Below, one piece after another: positions 2,275 to 49,504 of a DNA stretch of 64,000 nt (positions are counted from its first letter, which is position 1; the number at the start of each line of letters is the position of its first letter). The translations under genes were made by a program, and so were the position numbers. The stretch is from Spirochaetia bacterium (GTDB lineage Bacteria > Spirochaetota > UBA4802 > UBA5550): positions 147,086 to 211,085 of the forward strand of contig VFJS01000003.1 of assembly GCA_009885955.1 (NCBI GenBank), read 5' to 3'. Below the pieces are notes generated by a model. That model did no database searches, had not been told where the DNA came from, and was given only the letters and a program-made list of their open reading frames with translations.

Positions 2275-2425
2275 ATACCGGGGTCTGCCTCCTTTGAGAG
2301 TGTCCAAATAGTAAATAAAGGATTTGCCACAGAGGCCCTGAGACACAGAGAAGTATTAAGAATTATAAGCTCTTTCCGGAATGTTGGGCAATATAGATAT
2401 TTATAGACTTATCTTTGGAAATATT

Positions 2426-2468
2426 GCCCTCACCCCCGGCCCCTCTCCCGGAATAGGGAGAGGGGTGC
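2426..2468. repeat. GC-rich palindromic repeat, module A copy 1 (GCCCTCACCCCCGGCCCCTCTCCCGGAATAGGGAGAGGGG)
   Basis: Perfect hairpin CCCCTCTCCC/GGGAGAGGGG. The same 40-mer recurs reverse-complemented at 5549-5594 and degenerate at 10561-10602. Confidence 0.8.
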
Positions 2469-2577
2469 TAGTTATATATTTGTATGACCTCTTGATGCCA
2501 CTTATTCAGGGTAGAAACTATTTATTGTAAATGTTTTAGAAAAAGATGATTAATAAAAAGTATTAAAGATATATAAA

Positions 2578-2682
2578 ACCCTCGCCCTACTGGGAGAGGC
2601 GACAGGCAGGAGGCCTTAGTGTCGAGCGCGGACAGGATGGCCGAAAAGCGCTCGACGAACGCGCGGAGCGCGGGTGAGGGCA
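2578..2682 (+). repeat. 105-bp structured GC-rich repeat, module B copy 1
   Basis: Near-identical (1 mismatch) to 10629-10733. It has a closing helix CCCTCGCCC/GGGTGAGGG and an internal 9-bp stem GTCGAGCGC...GCGCTCGAC. Confidence 0.85.
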
Positions 2683-2730
2683 TCAGTTTTATAAGGCTGC
2701 TGATGCATTGACAATAACAGTGGTGATAAT

Positions 2731-3630
2731 GTGAAAATAGGATCCATCTCGGACATCCATATCGATATAAACAGATCCAGGGGGTACCCCGATGTTTCCG
2801 CTGACCTTTTACACTACATTGAGGGACTGGGCCTCGATGTCCTCATAATCCCAGGGGACATCTCAGGGACCTCCAGGACAATTGAGAATTTTTTTATTGA
2901 GGCAGATACGCTCTCTGTCCCGGTAAAGATCTTTGTGCCGGGGAACCATGACATCTGGGTTAACGGCAAAACTTCAGACGGCTCCATGATAAAGTATACT
3001 TCAATCCTTCCCGGGATCTGCAGTAACCATGGATGGCATTATCTTCCGGGCAACCCTCTGACACTGGGAAGAACAGCCTTCCTGGGTGCCATGGGATGGT
3101 ACGACTATTCACTGGCAGGGGACAAGGGGAGCCGTCTCTTTTCCAATGACGTGTATGAGAAAAAAATAAGCCCCGGCGGCGCCATGTGGATGGATGGAGA
3201 GTATGCCAGGTTCGGCATGTCAGATACCCGGGCCTCGGCATTGATGGTTGAAAATCTGAACAATGATTTGAAGAAAATAAAAATTCTCACCGATGCCGGC
3301 GGGGCGGATGAAACCTCCAGTCCGGTGAATGTAATTGTTGTGACCCATTTCATACCATACCGGGATTTTGTCTATTCCACCGGAGATCCCGATTATGACT
3401 TTTTCAATGCCTTCATGGGCTCGGCCGGTCTGGGTGAATGTATCAACACACTGCCGCAGCACCTGCGCCGTATAGCGCTTTTCGGGCACACTCACCGGCC
3501 CATGAAAAGGGCCATGGAGAGCGGTGTCGAGGCAGTCTGTGCGCCGCTGGGGTATCCGTCTGACCATGGGATGCTGTCTTTTCATGAAGCCCTGAACCGG
3601 AGGGTCGCTGTTTTCACTGTGGAGAATTGA
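2731..3630 (+). CDS. Calcineurin-like metallophosphoesterase
   Basis: Motifs 'SDIHID', 'IPGDISG', 'PGNHDIW', 'GHTH' fit the D-x-H / GD / GNH(D/E) / GH-x-H signature. Starts with GTG. Confidence 0.8.
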   Translation: MKIGSISDIHIDINRSRGYPDVSADLLHYIEGLGLDVLIIPGDISGTSRTIENFFIEADTLSVPVKIFVPGNHDIWVNGKTSDGSMIKYTSILPGICSNHGWHYLPGNPLTLGRTAFLGAMGWYDYSLAGDKGSRLFSNDVYEKKISPGGAMWMDGEYARFGMSDTRASALMVENLNNDLKKIKILTDAGGADETSSPVNVIVVTHFIPYRDFVYSTGDPDYDFFNAFMGSAGLGECINTLPQHLRRIALFGHTHRPMKRAMESGVEAVCAPLGYPSDHGMLSFHEALNRRVAVFTVEN

Positions 3631-3772
3631 GGGGGAATATCTATTGATAAAAGAAATTTTTTTACTCCGAAAATAACTTGACATACAAAATATTGAATAG
3701 TATTTTTTTTCAGTATTCAGTCACCGGTGTTCTAATTTTATATATTATTAACCTGTTATTTATTGTGAAATA

Positions 3773-3967
3773 ATGACCTATAAGGAAATTTTGAGGATTA
3801 TAGAAGAAGACGGCTGGTACCTTTCCCGGCAGAAAGGAAGCCACCGGCAATATAAACATCATACCAAGAAAGGACTTGTAACTATTGCCCATCACGGGGT
3901 CACGGAAACGATAGGACAGAAGATGCTGAAAAGCATTTTGAAGCAGGCACAGATTAATCTGAAGTGA
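3773..3967 (+). CDS. hicA: HicA-family toxin (mRNA interferase)
   Basis: 64 aa, 'LSRQKGSHRQYKHHTKKGLVTIAHHG...ILKQA' matches the HicA/YcfA fold signature. Immediately followed by hicB. Confidence 0.8.
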   Translation: MTYKEILRIIEEDGWYLSRQKGSHRQYKHHTKKGLVTIAHHGVTETIGQKMLKSILKQAQINLK

Positions 3968-3974
3968 GGAAAAC

Positions 3975-4190
3975 ATGTACAGATATATTGTAATATTTGA
4001 AAAGACAAATGACGGCTACAGCGCATCGGTTCCGGCACTGCCAGGCTGCGTTGCTATGGCAGATACAAAAAAGGAGATCGAAGAGCTTATATATAAGACG
4101 ATTTTATTTCATATCGAGGGCATGAAGGAAGAAGGCCTGGAAATTCCCGAAGAGAACGACATAGAAGTTGAGACCATGGTGTTCGCATGA
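3975..4190 (+). CDS. hicB: HicB-family antitoxin
   Basis: 71 aa, 'YRYIVIFEKTNDGYSASVPALPGCVAMADT' is the HicB/UPF0150 N-terminal motif. 8 nt downstream of hicA. Confidence 0.75.
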   Translation: MYRYIVIFEKTNDGYSASVPALPGCVAMADTKKEIEELIYKTILFHIEGMKEEGLEIPEENDIEVETMVFA

Positions 4191-4332
4191 AATATTTTTT
4201 TTAAATTCCGGTGGTCATACGCCAACCTACGCCCTTGAAACCTTCCAAATATATCAATATATCTTTAAAAAAACAGTTGAAATTAATAACCATTCCGATA
4301 GTTTTATCTAAATCAAAAAATAGAGGTTCACA

Positions 4333-5493
4333 ATGACCACAGGCCATAGGATCTTTTTTGGTATTGCTGTTTCAATCATCCTTATATTAACCGCTATAAT
4401 ATTTTTATCTAATAAAAAAGCCGATACCCATTTCAATTATCTCGATTTTTTCATAGGCAGGGTCGGTATCATTAAAAACAATAGGGCTGTTGAGGCCGCG
4501 GAAATTAAAAAAAAGCTCTTCCCCGGTGATACAGTGAAAACAGGCGCCGAAACAAAGGCCTTCATTCAGTTAGGCGCTGACAACATGGTCCAGGTTAATG
4601 AAAATACCGAAATCTCCATGGCCGGGCTCCCCGGCATGCTGGAATCATCAGACGGCAAAACATCTCTGGAGCTCAGACAGGGTAAAATTTTAATGTTCCT
4701 GAAGAAACTCGGGAAAAACGGCGAATTTTTTGTTAAATACAGGACTACGGTCATAGGTGTCAGAGGGACCGCCTTTTCCATGGAGGGCAGTGATGATGTA
4801 TTGTCCGTAACGGTATTGGAAGGGTCGGTGAGCATAAAGAGCGATAAAAATGATTTTCCCGGATTTATTATTGAAAGCGGGAAAAAGGGAGTGATTAAAG
4901 GAGCTGATGTTAAAATCGGAGAAATGAATCGGAGTGATCTCGATTCATTCAGGGAAATTACCGCGTTAAGGCCTCTGGCAGGGATAAGCTGCATGCCAAA
5001 AGAATATGTTGAGGAGTACTTCATCTGGAGGCTCGATATAAAAAAACATTCAAGGGGCGATGAAAAGGTCCCTGATGAAGAGAAAAAAACATCATCCCTG
5101 GAAAAGGAATCCAAAACAGATTCATTACCCGCGCACACTGATGCCAGGATAAGGATAAAAATCAACCCGCTGACAGCAAACGGGGTGGAGCCCGGGGAAG
5201 CCTCTGACATCACTGAAAAATTATACAACAGGCTGGCTGCATTAAAAGGAGGCGACTCCATAATTTATAATAAATCCGGAGATATATCAAAGAGCGCCAA
5301 CCGGCAGCTCACCGGAAGGATAAGCAAACTTGGAGCAAGCTACATTATCGCGGTCAGCGTCTCTCATGGCGAAACCGGAAGGGTGATGTTCACAAAGACA
5401 GTTACGGTGAAACCGGACCAGGTGGACAATGCCCTTAGTAACCTGGCCTCGCAGGTGAACGCCAGCGATGATATATGGGCAGTGGTGAAATGA
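4333..5493 (+). CDS. Membrane-anchored FecR-domain protein with a CsgG/LpoB-like C-terminal domain
   Basis: N-terminal TM helix, then a FecR-like block (GDTVKTGAETKAFIQLGADNMVQVNENTEI...LELRQGKILM...GTAFSME). The C-terminal ~90 aa resemble the alpha/beta fold of the downstream CsgG-like protein. Confidence 0.55.
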   Translation: MTTGHRIFFGIAVSIILILTAIIFLSNKKADTHFNYLDFFIGRVGIIKNNRAVEAAEIKKKLFPGDTVKTGAETKAFIQLGADNMVQVNENTEISMAGLPGMLESSDGKTSLELRQGKILMFLKKLGKNGEFFVKYRTTVIGVRGTAFSMEGSDDVLSVTVLEGSVSIKSDKNDFPGFIIESGKKGVIKGADVKIGEMNRSDLDSFREITALRPLAGISCMPKEYVEEYFIWRLDIKKHSRGDEKVPDEEKKTSSLEKESKTDSLPAHTDARIRIKINPLTANGVEPGEASDITEKLYNRLAALKGGDSIIYNKSGDISKSANRQLTGRISKLGASYIIAVSVSHGETGRVMFTKTVTVKPDQVDNALSNLASQVNASDDIWAVVK

Positions 5494-5548
5494 TTAAGAA
5501 TATATATTATGTTCTTGATATTAAAATTCCAACATTAGGTATTTAACG

Positions 5549-5594
5549 CCTTCTCCCCTCGCCCTATTCCGGGAGAGGGGCCGGGGGTGAGGGC
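5549..5594. repeat. GC-rich palindromic repeat, module A copy 2 (inverted orientation)
   Basis: Its reverse complement equals GCCCTCACCCCCGGCCCCTCTCCCGGAATAGGGcGAGGGG, nearly identical to 2426-2468. Confidence 0.8.
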
Positions 5595-5631
5595 AGATAG
5601 ATTTGGGCTGTAATCGTTTATCATGATTTGA

Positions 5632-6843
5632 ATGGGGAGATTTGACACAATGAAAAAATGTAACCTGGCGCTTCTTGCCGTAATTTTATTCCTTTCACAA
5701 AAACCATCGCAGGCCGAAACCATGAGGCTTGCCGTAATGGACTTAATAGCCAACAACGTGCCGAGAGTGGAGGCGCGGGCTGTAACAGACCTCATAAGGG
5801 CGGATCTCGTGGATTCGGGCATGTTCACCGTTGTAGAGAGGAGCCAGATGGATGAAATCCTGAAAGAGCAGGCCCTCCAGCAGATGGGCTGTACCGACAA
5901 CGCGTGCGCCGTGAAGGTGGGAAAGCTCCTGTCGGCGAACAAAATTCTCATTGGTGAGATGAGTAAAATAGGGGGCACCATAATATTAACCGTACGGATT
6001 GTAGATGTGGAAAAGGGCGTGGCCGAGGTTTCTTCCACCGAAAGGGTTAAATCCGCCGATGCCCTTGACGTTGCCGTGGGGAGCCTGGTCAAGCGCCTTG
6101 TTGACACACTGGGCGGCAAAAGGATAACTGACCTGGCCGGTGTCCTTGAAATACCGGAGAATTTTTCAGCCACTGACGGGGTTTACAGTGATAAAATTGT
6201 CATTACCTGGAGCCCGGTTAAGGAGGCGGATAAGTATTATGTCTTCAAGGAAATTAAGGGGAAATATGAACTGATTTTTACCACAAAGGAAACGGCCTTC
6301 ACAGACAAAAATGTCAAGTACGGCGAAAGATATTATTACCGGGTCAGGGCCGGGGTTTTTTCCAGGTTCAGCGAACTCAGCTCCACGGTTTCAGGTATGT
6401 GCGGCAAATCGGTCTCAGGATATTATTTGCGGGGGCTCATCCCCGGCTGGGGGCAGTTGTATTATAGAAATGATACAAAAGGATATATATTTCTCACCGG
6501 CTTTGCTGTTTTCACCGGAGCCCTGGGATATTCGCTTTACGATTATAATGCGAAGAAGGATGCTTACGACGGCCTCGATGCCAAATCATCGAAGAGCCGG
6601 TTCGATCCAAAATATAATGATTATAACAAGGCGGCTAACATGGCCATTAATGCAGCCGGAATTTGGGCGCTCTGGTATGCTGCAAACTGGATAGACCTTT
6701 TATGGTTTACTAAACCGGTTTTTGCCGACGATTCAGGGAGCGGTAAGACAGGTGCCAATATCGAAATTAATATATATAACAGGCAGTTGTCCAACGGGAA
6801 GGTTGATACCGTTGGGGTTCTATCGATTAATTGTAAATTCTAG
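5632..6843 (+). CDS. Secreted CsgG-like domain protein with an Fn3 domain and C-terminal TM segments
   Basis: Signal peptide. 'LAVMDL...ARAVTDLIRADLVDSGMFTVVERSQMDEILKEQ...GKLLSANKILIGEMS' matches the CsgG/curli-assembly lipoprotein family pattern. It is followed by an Fn3-like block (ITWSPV...YYYRVRA) and hydrophobic helices. Confidence 0.55.
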   Translation: MGRFDTMKKCNLALLAVILFLSQKPSQAETMRLAVMDLIANNVPRVEARAVTDLIRADLVDSGMFTVVERSQMDEILKEQALQQMGCTDNACAVKVGKLLSANKILIGEMSKIGGTIILTVRIVDVEKGVAEVSSTERVKSADALDVAVGSLVKRLVDTLGGKRITDLAGVLEIPENFSATDGVYSDKIVITWSPVKEADKYYVFKEIKGKYELIFTTKETAFTDKNVKYGERYYYRVRAGVFSRFSELSSTVSGMCGKSVSGYYLRGLIPGWGQLYYRNDTKGYIFLTGFAVFTGALGYSLYDYNAKKDAYDGLDAKSSKSRFDPKYNDYNKAANMAINAAGIWALWYAANWIDLLWFTKPVFADDSGSGKTGANIEINIYNRQLSNGKVDTVGVLSINCKF

Positions 6844-6856
6844 GAAGGAATAATTT

Positions 6857-7590
6857 ATGAAAAGAATTAATATAATGATAATCTTCACGATAATGAATTT
6901 TATGGCATGCTATATGGTATATGATACACCCAGGGACAATAAAAATGATCCCGGGGGAGATAAATATGTTTTAAGTGAAAACCTCCCAACAGTGACAATA
7001 GCTGTTACCGTGAATGTTAACGTAATAACAGTTTTAAGCACTGTCAGTAAAGGTACAACTGCTGTTACAGCTCGCGGTATATGCTGGAGCACCAGTCCAA
7101 ATCCCATTATAAGTAATTCCCATACCACTAATGGTATAGGAACTGGCAGTTTCACCGTTATTATTACAGATCTTTTTACGAGTAGTGCTCTATACTTTAT
7201 TCGGGCTTATGCAACAAATAATGCAGGAACAGCTTATAGTGATCAAATTAGTAGTAATATCTTGGAGTAATGTTGCTGATTTTATAGGAACAGGGCAGGC
7301 GAATGCTGATTTGATTATTAGTCAAACATGTCATTTATACAGTGCTGCAAAACTGTGTGACAATTATACTGACGGCGCCTATATCGACTGGTTTTTGCCG
7401 TCAAAAGATGAACTCAGTTTAATATATGCAAATTTGTATTTAAGCGGTGTTGAAGGTTTCGCTGGTTGCGGCTATTGGAATTCGTGAGGGGACTGGTTAC
7501 CCCGTGTGTTACCAGAATTTCTACGATGGCTTCCAGGGTACCGTCACTAATGACGCCACTTTCTATTTGCATGCTGTCCGGGCTTTTTAA
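6857..7590 (+). pseudogene. Frameshifted lipoprotein gene (Fn3-like 'CWSTSPNP...YFIRAYATNNAGTAYS' domain + DUF1566/Lcl-like domain) split over three frames
   Basis: Frame 2 (6857-7270) carries the lipobox and a Bacteroidetes-type Fn3-like domain. Frame 0 (7185-7487) carries DUF1566 'DWFLPSKDELSLIYANL...GFAGCGYWNS'. Frame 1 (7489-7590) carries the DUF1566 end 'CYQNFYDG...LHAVRAF'. Two +1 shifts near 7262 and 7486. Confidence 0.45.
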
Positions 7591-7654
7591 CAATTTATCT
7601 ATTTAACTATTTACTTTCCCGTGGAGCACCATTGGAGTTGTCCGTTGTGTTTCC

Positions 7655-7736
7655 GGACCGTAGGTTATTTGGTTATTTGCTTATTATGCGGGCTCCGCCC
7701 GCAGGGGATTTTCAATGGATCCTGGATTTGCTTTTA
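7655..7736 (+). repeat. Direct repeat copy 1 (~75 bp, contains palindrome GCGGGCTCCGCCCGC) flanking a two-gene cassette
   Basis: GGACCGTAGGTTATTTG(GTTATTTG)CTTATTATGCGGGCTCCGCCCGCAGGGGAT...GATTTGCT is repeated at 8496-8568 in the same orientation. Confidence 0.8.
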
Positions 7737-7795
7737 ATTGGAGGCATCAATGAGGATCCCCCTCCGATCTGGAGAAGAGTCTGCCTCCTAATCAT

Positions 7796-8134
7796 TCAAA
7801 GTCTGTGATTCGGTATATAGTTCAAAATATCATCAATGGTAATGTCATAATTGGGCATAATTTTTTCACCTTCATGTTTATGATGCGGGAAGGTTATCAC
7901 CTCTTTATGATGCGGTGAATTATCCCATCTTATAATTAAATCACCGTTAACTTTTTGCCAATGATAGGAATATTTTCTATCGAATTCATCTGAAAATTCC
8001 TTGATGAATAATCGGGTATTATTTAATAATTCAGATTCGATTTTTATAAAAAATCCGGTTTTAAAAACCCGGAAGTCCTGAATTGTATATTTTTTAATGA
8101 TTACCGAGGCATTAAGAGATTTGATAATTTCCAT
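7796..8134 (-). CDS. DUF6516/TumE-like small protein (putative toxin of an addiction-type pair)
   Basis: 112 aa with the motif 'RWDNSPHHKEVITFPHHKH'. This resembles the conserved YDNAPHH...FPHHKH signature I recall for the TumE-like family. It overlaps the upstream small gene by 23 nt. Confidence 0.45.
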   Translation of the reverse strand: MEIIKSLNASVIIKKYTIQDFRVFKTGFFIKIESELLNNTRLFIKEFSDEFDRKYSYHWQKVNGDLIIRWDNSPHHKEVITFPHHKHEGEKIMPNYDITIDDILNYIPNHRL

Positions 8135-8378
8135 TGATTATATCTTCTTTTTCTGAAATCAATTCTCTATAACTTTTATCGTATGCTTTCCATTCCATGT
8201 AGTCATCCCATTCGGTATAATTTTCAGTTTTTTCGCTATTTATCAAATTTTCAAATTCTTCAAAAGACATTTTATATTTAGTCTTCATCAAAGCGATTCT
8301 ATCCTCCGCTTTATGCAATTCATACAGGAGATTCATATAAAACAAATCTTTAATGTTATCATTATGTATAATTACCAT
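8112..8378 (-). CDS. Small hypothetical protein, putative partner (antitoxin?) of the TumE-like gene
   Basis: 88-aa acidic protein, co-oriented and overlapping the downstream gene. No recognisable motif. Confidence 0.35.
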   Translation of the reverse strand: MVIIHNDNIKDLFYMNLLYELHKAEDRIALMKTKYKMSFEEFENLINSEKTENYTEWDDYMEWKAYDKSYRELISEKEDIINGNYQIS

Positions 8379-8495
8379 ATTAGAGACCTGCCCGGAATAT
8401 CATATTTTTATATGAAAAAAATTATTATCAATTAATTGTTCTGTCAAGTAAAATATGTTTTTTGGAATCATACCTACTATGACCGCTGCATTTAC

Positions 8496-8568
8496 GGACC
8501 CTTGGTTATTTGCTTATTATGCGGGCTCCGCCCGCAGGGGATGTCCAGGTGAACCTAGATTTGCTAAA
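8496..8568 (+). repeat. Direct repeat copy 2
   Basis: See 7655-7736. Copy 2 lacks the 8-bp internal tandem duplication. Confidence 0.8.
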
Positions 8569-8576
8569 TTAATATA

Positions 8577-8981
8577 TCATTCTATCTTATCAATTAATTT
8601 TTTGATATTTTCCATAAATTTCATTAAATCAGAATAAGACCTGGTTAATTCGCCCTTTGAAAAAACTACAAAATCATCATAATCGCTTTTTGTTCTCAAG
8701 TCATAGGAATTATAAACTATTTCACCAATTTCGTGCGGGACAATGCCGGCCTTTACGAATTCCCTGTTGAACCAGCCGATCAGTTGAAGGTGCTTGGAGG
8801 TTTGGTAATTCTTTTTTAACGCAAACGCCGATAGCAAGTAATAGATACAGTAATATATCCGGTTTGCGGCTGTTTCCAGATAGCCAGTTTTTATTAAGAC
8901 ATCAATTTCAGATATAAGCGCGTCAGCTCTTTTTATGCGATGGGCAATTAAAATACTTTTATCTTCATCACTTAATGTCAT
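8577..8981 (-). CDS. HEPN-domain protein (toxin-like partner of the upstream nucleotidyltransferase)
   Basis: 134-aa all-helical protein. 4-nt ATGA overlap with the MNT gene, the classic HEPN/MNT arrangement. No canonical Rx4-6H motif was seen, so toxicity is uncertain. Confidence 0.6.
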   Translation of the reverse strand: MTLSDEDKSILIAHRIKRADALISEIDVLIKTGYLETAANRIYYCIYYLLSAFALKKNYQTSKHLQLIGWFNREFVKAGIVPHEIGEIVYNSYDLRTKSDYDDFVVFSKGELTRSYSDLMKFMENIKKLIDKIE

Positions 8982-9331
8982 ACGGTAATGCCGCTTTCAA
9001 TGGCCTTTTGAATAAAGGGTTGTTTTCCGCGAATTGTATTAAGCTGGGGTTTCGATATAATTTTTGCGTCAATTATAATATCGTATTTCAAGCTGATATC
9101 ATAACAAATTTTTTTTATATTCGATTCAATAGAAGAGTTAAAGTCTGATAATAATATGATAAGAATATCATAATCTGAATATTCACGGGCAGTTCCGTCA
9201 ATCCTGGATCCGAATAATAAAATATTATCCAGAATGTTTCCAAATGCTTTTAGTAATTCGTTTTTCAGGTCTATTAATAAAATATTATTATCCAATTTTT
9301 TGTTATCCTCGATGATGAATTTCTCTTGCAA
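8978..9331 (-). CDS. Minimal nucleotidyltransferase (MNT/MntA-like antitoxin)
   Basis: 'LLFGSRIDGTAREYSDYDILII' is the GS-x9-DxD polymerase-beta-type NTase motif. Confidence 0.75.
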   Translation of the reverse strand: MQEKFIIEDNKKLDNNILLIDLKNELLKAFGNILDNILLFGSRIDGTAREYSDYDILIILLSDFNSSIESNIKKICYDISLKYDIIIDAKIISKPQLNTIRGKQPFIQKAIESGITV

Positions 9332-9515
9332 TTCCTGTTTTATGCGCTTTCAGCGCCTTTTCGGCGATACTATCAAAGCGATGCTCCTTAATATCTTTTT
9401 CAATCTGCTTGTCCCACTCATCTGAATCATATTTTCTAAACCATTCCCTGAGAGTAGAAAGATCTTTCCGATCAAGCTTTATGATCTCTTGCTCCAATTT
9501 TTGAACTTTTGTCAT
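9303..9515 (-). CDS. Small hypothetical protein (possible addiction-module component)
   Basis: 70-aa charged helical ORF overlapping the MNT start by 29 nt. No motif recognised. Confidence 0.3.
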   Translation of the reverse strand: MTKVQKLEQEIIKLDRKDLSTLREWFRKYDSDEWDKQIEKDIKEHRFDSIAEKALKAHKTGIAREIHHRG

Positions 9516-9804
9516 TATTTTATAGTCTTAAAATTGAATAAATAAATGCTAAATATTAAATAATTATAGTTCAATAATATAAAATTAAAAAAAATACGTC
9601 AATTATTTTAAATGGTGTAAATTGGCAAAGTTCTCTGTTAATATTTAATGATATACAGTAGTTTATGCAAAAGGGTCAAGATTAGCGTCTGATAGGGAAT
9701 GCCTTCTTCCAGCGCTAATTTCCCTAGAACAGCCTGATTCCTGTCTGTAATATTTCTTTTGCAAAGGGATTTTCCCGGTTAAAGTCTTCAGGTAAAAAAA
9801 GGAA

Positions 9805-10200
9805 TTACTTCAAGTTCACTGCCCACTTCCGGATAAATACCGTTATATCCGCCTTGCCAATATCCCCTTTCGTTACTGATAAAACCATTTTCACAAGTTT
9901 ATCCTGTAACACGGTCATATCATATCCATTTGAGATAAGAAATACAAGTGCAGAGGCAACGGCGGTCCGTTTGTTTCCATCGACAAAAGGATGATTTTTA
10001 ACAATATGAAAGAGATATGCCGCAGCAATTTCAAAGAGGTCAGTGTGAAGGAATTCGCCGCCATAGGTGGCAATTGGAATTCCCAGTGCCGATTTAAGCA
10101 ATTCTATATTCCGGATGCCGGGTGAACCTCCATAGCGGGTGACCTGATCTCTATGGATTTCGAGAACTTCAGAAAGACTCAGGAAAGATATCTCTTTCAT
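9805..10200 (-). CDS. doc: Doc/Fic-family toxin (death-on-curing)
   Basis: Fic motif 'HPFVDGNKRTA' (HPFx[DE]GNKR). Confidence 0.85.
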   Translation of the reverse strand: MKEISFLSLSEVLEIHRDQVTRYGGSPGIRNIELLKSALGIPIATYGGEFLHTDLFEIAAAYLFHIVKNHPFVDGNKRTAVASALVFLISNGYDMTVLQDKLVKMVLSVTKGDIGKADITVFIRKWAVNLK

Positions 10201-10202
10201 CC

Positions 10203-10430
10203 CTATTGGGCCAGTTTTTTAAGGGCTCTGGCATATTTATTGTTAACCTTATCCAGGGCTGTTTTGAATGTGGCCTGCCGGTTTACGTCCCTTATTGGTG
10301 TGAGCACCAATGCCTGCCCGTCTGTCGTGACGTCAAAGGGGGTGTCTGCCTCAACCCCGAGAAGATCGAGAATCGGTTTTTCGATAACCAGCGCAAGGCT
10401 GTTCCCATGTTTTGTGAGTGTTTTTATCAT
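10203..10430 (-). CDS. AbrB/MazE/SpoVT-type antitoxin (Phd-like partner of Doc)
   Basis: 75 aa. 'HGNSLALVIEKPILDLLGVEADTPFDV' is a looped-hinge-helix swapped-hairpin motif. Its stop is 2 nt upstream of the doc start. Confidence 0.7.
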   Translation of the reverse strand: MIKTLTKHGNSLALVIEKPILDLLGVEADTPFDVTTDGQALVLTPIRDVNRQATFKTALDKVNNKYARALKKLAQ

Positions 10431-10560
10431 AATGAACCTCGCGCAATGTTAATACTATGTAGTTACAATGTATTAACAAAATATTTTTCTGTCAATATTT
10501 TCATTATTTTTCCTTGAAAAAAGTATTGCAAATCCCGGAAAAGATTATTTTTCAGATAAT

Positions 10561-10602
10561 GCTCCCACCCCCGGCCATCTCCCGGAACAGGTTGAGAGGT
10601 GG
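10561..10602. repeat. GC-rich palindromic repeat, module A copy 3 (degenerate)
   Basis: GCTCCCACCCCCGGCCATCTCCCGGAACAGG..GAGAGGTGG compared with module A. It lies 26 bp upstream of module B copy 2. Confidence 0.6.
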
Positions 10603-10628
10603 TTGTACATATAAGTTTTGTAATTGAA

Positions 10629-10733
10629 ACCCTCGCCCTACCGGGAGAGGCGACAGGCAGGAGGCCTTAGTGTCGAGCGCGGACAGGATGGCCGAAAAGC
10701 GCTCGACGAACGCGCGGAGCGCGGGTGAGGGCA
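10629..10733 (+). repeat. 105-bp structured GC-rich repeat, module B copy 2
   Basis: 1 mismatch relative to 2578-2682. It ends ~35 nt upstream of the SDR gene start. Confidence 0.85.
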
Positions 10734-10757
10734 ATGAGTTTAATTTAATTTTATTCC

Positions 10758-36101: not shown

Positions 36102-36297
36102 CAGCCAGAAAATAGGAAAAAAATTTTGCTCAGGTCTTAGCACGGATAAACACTGATAAAAATGAGATAATAATGAAAATGTATTATCTCATTAAAAAAA
36201 TAAACCTAAAATGAGAATAAGTTTCTAATAATGATATTAAAAAAATCCGTGAATATCCGCGTGAAGACCTGAGCTATTATTTATAGCTGAGTAGTAA
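36102..36297. repeat. Nested inverted-repeat element with AT-rich core (MITE-like or looped operator region)
   Basis: Outer arms GGTAACTACTCAGC / GCTGAGTAGTAAC (perfect). Middle arms GCTCAGGTCTT / AAGACCTGAGC. Inner CACGGAT / ATCCGTGA + ATCCGCGTGA. ~130 bp AT-rich centre. Lies in the nth / methyltransferase divergent intergenic region. Confidence 0.7.
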
Positions 36298-49228: not shown

Positions 49229-49410
49229 TCACGGATTTGCACGGATAAAAAGGGATAATATTGAATATAAAAGAATTTTTATTTTAATAGGAGAAATAAT
49301 AGGGATTAGTTCACGGTAAAATTTTGAAAATAATCCTTCAATTGATGGGAATATATTTGAGAGTAGCTTTAAGAAATAAATAATCCGTGACTATCCGTGA
49401 AAATCCGTGA
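49229..49410. promoter_or_regulatory. Inverted arrays of TCACGGAT / ATCCGTGA motifs flanking an AT-rich ~135 bp core
   Basis: Left: TCACGGATttgCACGGAT (49229-49246). Right: ATCCGTGActATCCGTGAaaATCCGTGA (49383-49410). Same motif and architecture as 36102-36297. Lies in a divergent intergenic region. Confidence 0.55.
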
Positions 49411-49504
49411 ACAAATATTTGTTTTTGAGCTGAAGCCTTTCAGCAAAATAAAATAATAATGTGAGACGATATGGTGAAGAAGAATATGAAACCGCTGTTT
49501 AAGA

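Follow-up and report, generated by a model that had tools for sequence, protein, structure and literature searches.

A direct repeat, R, around a TumA-TumE toxin-antitoxin gene pair in a Spirochaetia bacterium

Two small, overlapping minus-strand genes in the genome of a Spirochaetia bacterium sit between two same-orientation copies of a short repeat, here called R, and the question that this locus raises is whether the repeat takes part in the gain and loss of the genes that it brackets, or stands on either side of them for some other reason. The window that we analysed is a stretch of 64,000 nucleotides (positions 147,086 to 211,085 of contig VFJS01000003.1, assembly GCA_009885955.1), and window coordinates below count from its first letter. 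An initial annotation, made from the sequence alone, took the gene pair for an inserted or duplicating cassette with the repeat as its attachment or recombination site. Here, we assign the two genes to the TumA-TumE family of toxin-antitoxin (TA) modules, describe R, and tentatively propose that R is an element that ends such modules in this lineage.

The gene pair and the repeat that brackets it

The segment and its borders hold the following features, the two copies of R each being found by direct reading, repeat finder, alignment and nhmmer.

7639-7732, plus strand: R copy 1, 94 nt
8480-8565, plus strand: R copy 2, 86 nt
7663-7678, plus strand: tandem 8-bp duplication, GGTTATTT twice, in copy 1 only (copy 2 has one unit)
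7669-7709, plus strand: core of copy 1, 41 nt, identical to the core of copy 2
8502-8542, plus strand: core of copy 2, identical to the core of copy 1
7687-7703 (copy 1) and 8520-8536 (copy 2), plus strand: 7-bp GC hairpin in the cores, from folding
8378-8112, minus strand: tumA-type partner (antitoxin) gene, 88 aa, in the conserved partner position, overlapping tumE by 23 nt
8134-7796, minus strand: tumE-family toxin gene, 112 aa, with Pfam PF20126 and the motif RWDNSPHH...FPHHKH
8379-8479, minus strand: AT-rich leader or promoter region of tumA-tumE, outside R, from consensus matches only
7735-7794, minus strand: GC-rich hairpin, 60 nt, directly after the TumE stop and outside R, from folding

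The 112-aa open reading frame (ORF) carries IIRWDNSPHHKEVITFPHHKH and matches the Pfam TumE profile (PF20126, formerly DUF6516) at 76.1 bits against a cutoff of 23.4 (E = 2.2e-21), in an alignment that covers profile positions 3-76 of 81; its 344 TumE homologues in the protein collection all bear the PF20126 domain. Against NCBIfam NF045777, the equivalog model of tested TumE, it scores 45.2 bits, below that model's cutoff of 90, and the toxin is a superfamily member that lies outside the experimentally tested TumE subcluster. The 88-aa partner has no match in our local copy of Pfam. It is 31-80% identical to the ORFs in the same position at four other TumE loci (L008, L011, L013 and L014), across all of which the motif WDDYxEWKAY is invariant. 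The partners at these loci are of the same length and overlap tumE by 23-29 nt, and partners in homologous loci carry Pfam PF27273 (MJ0235). The PF20126 score and the conserved partner bear out the first description of the pair as a TumE/DUF6516 module with its cognate partner, and the motif that had been noticed in one of the genes is that of the 112-aa TumE.

A second copy of both genes, at 82% nucleotide identity, is present on two contigs of the Logan collection (L008 and L009) from the same samples. Between the window and L008 copies, dS (the synonymous divergence) is ~1 and dN/dS (the ratio of nonsynonymous to synonymous divergence) is ~0.11 for both genes and 0.12 for tumE. These rates show that both genes are under purifying selection, that both copies of the module are functional, and that the split between them is old.

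Durairaj et al. (2023, Nature; PMC10584680) defined TumE-TumA and validated it by experiment as a TA system that targets translation: six gammaproteobacterial TumE toxins halted the growth of E. coli and were neutralised by their partners, one of the six lowered methionine incorporation, and the partner families proved diverse and unrelated to each other. By analogy with these tested members of the family, the toxin described here would block translation and its partner would neutralise it. The 746 bp between the repeats hold a promoter region, the antitoxin gene, the toxin gene and the hairpin. Promoter-like sites for tumA, recognised by consensus matches only, lie at 8452-8424 and 8431-8404, between R copy 2 and the start codon; because these sites lie outside R, the repeats enclose a complete unit. 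Its sequence is that expected of a self-contained type II TA operon of the TumA-TumE family, with the antitoxin gene first. The module is compositionally foreign, with a GC content of 30% against 45% for the window. The hairpin at 7735-7794 (GGAGGCA...TGCCTCC with an inner CUCUUCUCC/GGAGGGGG helix; -24 kcal/mol, z = -1.9) occupies the interval from the TumE stop to R copy 1; no U-run follows it, and it has no counterpart at copy 2.

R is a unit of 86 nt whose two copies, once the extra unit of copy 1 is removed, are identical at 72 of 86 positions (16% diverged). The differences are not spread along it: the 14 mismatches are confined to the flanks (24 bases on one side and 23 on the other), which have diverged by ~31%, and the core between them, TTGGTTATTTGCTTATTATGCGGGCTCCGCCCGCAGGGGAT (7669-7709 = 8502-8542), is identical. 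An identical run as long as this arises in ~0.1% of random placements of 14 mismatches (permutation P ~0.001), and the 29-nt core of R occurs twice in the window against none expected in shuffles. Within the core, TGCGGGC-TCC-GCCCGCA can form a perfect 7-bp GC stem with a 3-nt loop, and 5' of this hairpin lies a long, non-palindromic conserved part (GGTTATTTGCTTATTA). Of the four predicted folds (two copies, two strands), three contain this stem, namely both strands of copy 1 and the plus strand of copy 2, and no other helix recurs among them; folds of copy 2 over the whole repeat are no better than those of shuffled sequences (z = -1.3 and -0.5). Immediately 3' of the hairpin the bases read UAAUAAGCAAAU on the minus strand and GGGGAU on the plus strand, with no U-run on either. 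Direct reading, repeat finder, alignment and profile thus agree with the initial annotation that two overlapping minus-strand genes lie exactly between two same-orientation repeats, and that copy 1 carries an extra 8-bp tandem duplication (7663-7678); the repeats are real, but the length of ~75 bp first given for them falls short of the 86 nt found here.

R in the toxin-antitoxin island

The tumA-tumE pair is the left end of an AT-rich TA island, which continues to the right with two operons on the same strand.

9515-8577, minus strand: MNT-HEPN operon (70-aa ORF 9515-9303, MNT nucleotidyltransferase 9331-8978, HEPN 8981-8577)
10430-9805, minus strand: Doc operon (Doc-partner antitoxin 10430-10203, Doc/Fic toxin 10200-9805)

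The presence of MNT-HEPN and of Doc with its antitoxin partner, together with a GC content of 25-33% against ~45% for the window, confirms the TA-dense, AT-rich island in which the initial annotation had placed the pair. To the left of the island lies a plus-strand DUF1566/Lcl_C-like gene that ends at 7590. The two copies of R occupy adjacent intergenic spaces, 833 bp apart, and when the locus is read along the minus strand each of them follows directly 3' of a TA operon in the same orientation and position: copy 2 lies 11 nt past the HEPN stop, and copy 1 lies 63 nt past the TumE stop. On its other side, copy 1 begins 48 nt past the stop (7588-7590) of the convergent DUF1566-like gene. A search of the 64 kb with an nhmmer profile finds no copy of R 3' of the Doc operon.

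The reading that we favour, while giving it somewhat less than an even chance, is that R is a lineage-specific element that ends TA modules, and that TumA-TumE and MNT-HEPN were joined through its core and remain deletable. We propose that the core, ~40 nt with its 7-bp GC hairpin, would be kept identical by function or by gene conversion while the flanks drift, and that the arrangement R - tumAE - R would have arisen when recombination through this shared core brought TumA-TumE and MNT-HEPN together. For this step it could suffice that the resident R recombined, by the ordinary homologous route, with an R on incoming or neighbouring DNA: in E. coli such recombination usually needs roughly 25 bp, and the core of R provides 41 identical bases. 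Through the same homology the two copies could also recombine with each other, and the 833-bp unit would then be lost. R's part in the joining of modules, the absence of a dedicated recombinase and the action of the core hairpin are all three things that we infer. That two copies lie only 833 bp apart in 64 kb argues that their relationship is local rather than a matter of random scatter. Because their flanks are ~31% diverged and their core is identical, the copies were not newly duplicated in an insertion event; they are either old, with the core kept by selection or gene conversion, or descended from two already-diverged members of a family that recombined within the core. The inserted or duplicating cassette of the initial annotation therefore survives in part: the foreign GC content, the non-random bracket and the occurrence of the module in other contexts support it, whereas the divergence of the flanks excludes a fresh duplication.

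Several observations weigh against our proposal. No empty site, excised circle or, within the 64-kb window, third copy of R was seen, and the Doc operon, the third of the island, has no R after it. The divergence of the flanks means that the event, if there was one, was either old or between already-diverged family members. Other families of short interspersed repeats, unrelated to TA genes, occur in the window and on contig L008, and R itself is absent at the L008 module. This last absence is weak evidence, because at a dS of ~1 the loss of similarity in neutral flanks is to be expected. Finally, the order R - tumAE - R rests on the assembly of a metagenome-assembled genome (MAG), and independent contigs confirm only the junction between copy 2 and HEPN.

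Conservation of the core alone could also have an origin in function without mobility. R may be a selected cis element, an RNA 3'-end hairpin or a protein-binding site, that was left in two places by an old local duplication; we consider this unlikely, and it is not exclusive of the other readings. An identical core of ~40 nt inside flanks that are ~31% diverged is what such an element would leave, and the stem and loop, predicted for every strand but the minus strand of copy 2, as well as the orientation and position that both copies share relative to the upstream operon, fit it too. It is harder to reconcile with the lack of an R at the Doc operon and with the folding of copy 2, which is no better than that of shuffles over the whole repeat. 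An intrinsic terminator is rejected, as no U-run follows the stem on either strand and a terminator scan calls neither copy. A comparison with Rfam 15 gives no match overlapping either copy, whether at the gathering score or at E up to 10, and two copies with an invariant core allow no covariation test.

Independent support for the locus comes from Logan contigs, assemblies of runs SRR8670873-78 that are 100% identical to the window. On the HEPN side, contigs from four runs (L001-L004) all stop at 8513, exactly the position at which an assembly graph with k=31 has to fork as it runs into the core common to both copies. These contigs independently confirm the right part of R copy 2 and its junction with HEPN, and their common stop shows that those samples contain the core of R in two or more contexts. 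Copy 1, the left side of copy 2 and the junctions of the TumA-TumE segment are covered by none of the independent contigs retrieved. HEPN is on record both from the 408-kb NCBI MAG contig that holds the window and from Logan assemblies of the same runs; for TumE and TumA, the exact proteins are recorded from the MAG contig alone. A metagenome assembler could leave such a pattern by threading an inter-repeat segment of ~850 bp that belongs elsewhere between the two copies of R. We find an artefact of this kind very improbable: the identical core, at only 41 nt, is much shorter than the reads and than the larger k values that common assemblers use, and the copies are anchored by distinct flanks. 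Moreover, the unitig expected between the repeats, at 852 nt, is shorter than the apparent Logan floor of ~900 nt (judged from the smallest contigs seen, 921-939 nt), which would explain why it is missing.

The contigs on the left side stop early, L005 at 7602 (5566-7602, the same in two samples) and L006 at 7529 (5566-7529), and both stops fall short of ~7699, the position expected were R alone the break. For a contig to end at 7602 there must be either a variant at 7603 or a stretch, beginning at 7573, that another locus also contains, and the end could mark a strain-level boundary 12 nt after the DUF1566 stop. The DUF1566/Lcl_C-like gene itself (7185-7590) is split by a frameshift near 7485, one frame ending in ...GCGYWNS and a stop at 7487 and the +1 frame running on through ...EGTGYPVCYQNFYDGFQGTVTNDATFYLHAVRAF to a stop at 7590; because Logan contigs from two further runs are 100% identical there, the frameshift is not the error of one assembly. 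On the other side of the tumA-tumE pair, the 70-aa ORF at 9303-9515 (minus strand) has no family match and shares 29 nt with the start of the MNT gene. All the Logan contigs contain it, so the MNT-HEPN unit is possibly an operon of three genes.

Relatives of the module and of the repeat

On L008 and L009, the module lies between a glyoxalase gene and a convergent ORF, with no R; homology of L008 to the window runs from one base before the tumA start to ~15 nt before the tumE stop. At L011 and L014, TumA-TumE loci that are more distantly related, no direct repeats flank the module. A fourth, L013 (Desulfoscipio sp. XC116, CP156660.1), has a TumA-TumE pair whose toxin is 53% identical to the one described here, and this pair is bracketed by direct repeats at 2277-2576 and 4511-4810. 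The repeats have 100% identity over at least 300 nt and extend into the 3' ends of a pair of same-strand 323-aa genes of the Transposase_31 family (2331-3302 and 4565-5536). The layout of L013 resembles a composite transposon, and a YoeB/Phd pair lies nearby. Since the module is found in different genomic contexts (L008, L011, L013 and L014), it moves; a bracket of direct repeats is not general to TumA-TumE, and the module does not depend on having R.

The claim that R is an attachment or recombination site finds no support in these comparisons, the closest relative of the cassette (82%) standing elsewhere without R and the L011 and L014 modules having no flanking repeats. Nor is it supported by the genes and sequence features at hand. 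A Pfam scan of 37 of the ORFs of the window, among them all of those in the other AT-rich stretches, found no integrase, transposase or other recombinase, and R has no features of an attC site, of a miniature inverted-repeat transposable element (MITE) or of a dif site. As for a MITE, the ends TGACCG... and ...ATTTGCT are not complementary and no target duplication flanks the copies; a dif-like site was rejected on sequence features. R is also not coding: the 38-aa ORFs that are open in both copies lose their shared frame upstream of the 8-bp indel, and none of eight variants of the ORFs across R is on record as a called gene.

The succession of ORFs and repeat, twice over, all in one orientation and with TA genes as cargo, resembles chromosomal integron arrays, and among spirochaetes Treponema denticola has an integron. 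That the present locus is such a cassette array, with R as an attC site recombined by an integron integrase, is nonetheless extremely improbable, and we regard this reading as largely refuted. Both strands of R read GTT...AAC instead of RYYYAAC...GTTRRRY, so that the attC ends are in the wrong order, and its 86 nt form no long imperfect hairpin across the site, only the local 7-bp stem being stable. There are just two copies, with none after the Doc operon, the cassette has a promoter region of its own, and no integrase is encoded among the scanned ORFs. R might instead be the site of a novel system that stacks TA cassettes, with its hairpin core recognised by an enzyme encoded elsewhere in the genome; this enzyme would insert and excise modules serially, in the manner of an integron but without the features of attC or IntI. 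We judge this version improbable.

Searches beyond the locus found R nowhere else in the collections covered. Neither blastn-short nor an nhmmer profile of both copies finds a third copy in the 64-kb window. Exact scans gave no matches for a 24-mer of the core in one genome per species (GTDB), none for either of two different halves of the core in JGI metagenomes, and none for the core in the viral contigs of IMG/VR, and blastn of the whole of R against plasmids and phages returned only chance matches of 26 nt. R is a repeat specific to a poorly sampled Spirochaetota-like lineage. When an orthologous locus was sought by way of the adjacent M23 peptidase, the only relative was Spirochaetes bacterium RA.bin95 (47% identity), which shares only the proC-M23 synteny and has no island; it is too distant to be used for an empty-site comparison. 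Among the relatives of HEPN, which were sought for a downstream R, the best is 51% identical, too far for a comparison of non-coding DNA.

The serious rival to our proposal is that R is an ordinary dispersed intergenic repeat, of the kind of the repetitive extragenic palindromic (REP) elements, which landed twice independently, so that the position of TumA-TumE between the copies is a coincidence and R has no role in gain or loss. Short interspersed repeats are common in this host, several other families being present in the window and on L008, and this favours the ordinary-repeat reading; R is, moreover, a GC hairpin in AT-rich intergenic DNA at 3' ends, as is typical for REP, and the module's nearest relative, on L008, is without it. 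On the other hand, only two copies exist in 64 kb, they occupy adjacent spaces, and a spacing of 833 bp would arise by chance in ~2.6% of cases by our calculation for random placement. R shows no terminal inverted repeats or target duplications, and no REP-associated transposase is encoded among the 37 scanned ORFs. Independent insertion is thus somewhat doubtful, and we return to it below in comparing R with known elements.

The other repeats of the window are of several kinds. A GC-rich (~65% GC), structured element of 107-118 nt occurs at 2576-2692 and 10627-10744, as direct copies 8 kb apart that are 99% identical over 107 nt and 97% over 118 nt. It has imperfect inverted ends (CCCTCGCCC ... 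GGGTGAGGG), fold z scores of -3.3 and -4.9, and no Rfam match. Its copies end 13-38 nt upstream of plus-strand starts, at 2731 (metallophosphoesterase) and 10758 (short-chain dehydrogenase), and bracket the whole region that holds the TA island. A GC-rich palindrome of 41 nt (TGCCCTCACCCCCGGCCCCTCTCCCGGAATAGGGAGAGGGG) occurs at 2425-2465 (plus strand) and 5555-5595 (minus strand), as inverted copies with 98% identity, and the reverse complement of its first 11 bases is found at the end of the 107-nt element. A degenerate third copy of the palindrome lies at ~10560-10602, just before the 107-nt element at 10627, which indicates that a composite of the 41-nt and 107-nt elements is repeated at 2.4 kb and 10.6 kb. 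A further family of ~40 nt (ATCCGTGAATATCCGCGTAAATCCGTGAGCAAATATTTA) is found in intergenic DNA at 36245-36293 and 49383-49420 and again at positions 1-48 of L008, from which we take L008 to come from the same or a closely related genome. L008 also has a 46-nt direct repeat of its own, unrelated in sequence to R, at 625-670 (intergenic, upstream of tumA) and 3940-3985 (the contig end), with 91% identity between the copies.

The three strongest repeat pairs of the window (the 107-nt element, the 41-nt palindrome and R) each have both copies within 2425-10744, a region of 8.3 kb, and self-blastn at E < 1e-4 finds no repeat pair in the remaining 53 kb. This clustering, together with the 833 bp between the copies of R, argues for local processes rather than random scatter, and suggests that 2425-10744 is a locally rearranging or accreting region.

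Comparison with known systems

The pair of genes has its closest counterpart in the TumE-TumA systems of Durairaj et al. (PMC10584680), with which it shares a PF20126 toxin, a bicistronic layout, a small overlapping upstream partner from a conserved family, and purifying selection on both genes. It differs in that its toxin scores below the NF045777 cutoff and its partner is MJ0235-like (PF27273), and in that toxicity and neutralisation are putative here.

R has partial likenesses to several classes of element. With integron cassettes and their attC sites it shares promoter-proximal ORFs followed by a repeat at the 3' end of the cassette, a single orientation and TA cargo; unlike them, it has neither the sequence nor the fold of attC, no integrase was seen among the scanned ORFs, and the module has two repeats and a promoter region of its own, so that R is not a member of this class. 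REP elements and bacterial interspersed mosaic elements (BIMEs) are likewise short GC hairpins in intergenic DNA at operon 3' ends, specific to lineages and, as here, in the company of other short repeat families. The R unit differs from these in its 86-nt length with a non-palindromic conserved part; it is present in two copies in the 64 kb, and no REP-associated transposase was seen among the scanned ORFs. Genomic islets flanked by direct repeats that resemble att (attachment) sites and composite units flanked by identical insertion sequences (ISs) have the same R - cargo - R topology, the cargo here being a TA module, and the locus in Desulfoscipio sp. XC116 (L013) is likewise a TumA-TumE pair bracketed by direct repeats, there 100% identical over at least 300 nt and associated with Transposase_31 genes. 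R is in contrast non-coding, 86 nt long and 16% diverged, with no enzyme that can be named.

Two things are new in this locus. The first is a divergent TumE-TumA pair with an MJ0235-like partner, which adds to a recently defined family. The second is R itself, an uncharacterised, lineage-specific repeat about which there is nothing extraordinary so far, and the practical value of both is limited for now. If R does mediate the gain and loss of modules, however, the locus would be a small, clean example of how a TA island can be assembled without an integron, and R would serve as a sequence tag with which further such modules may be found in this lineage.

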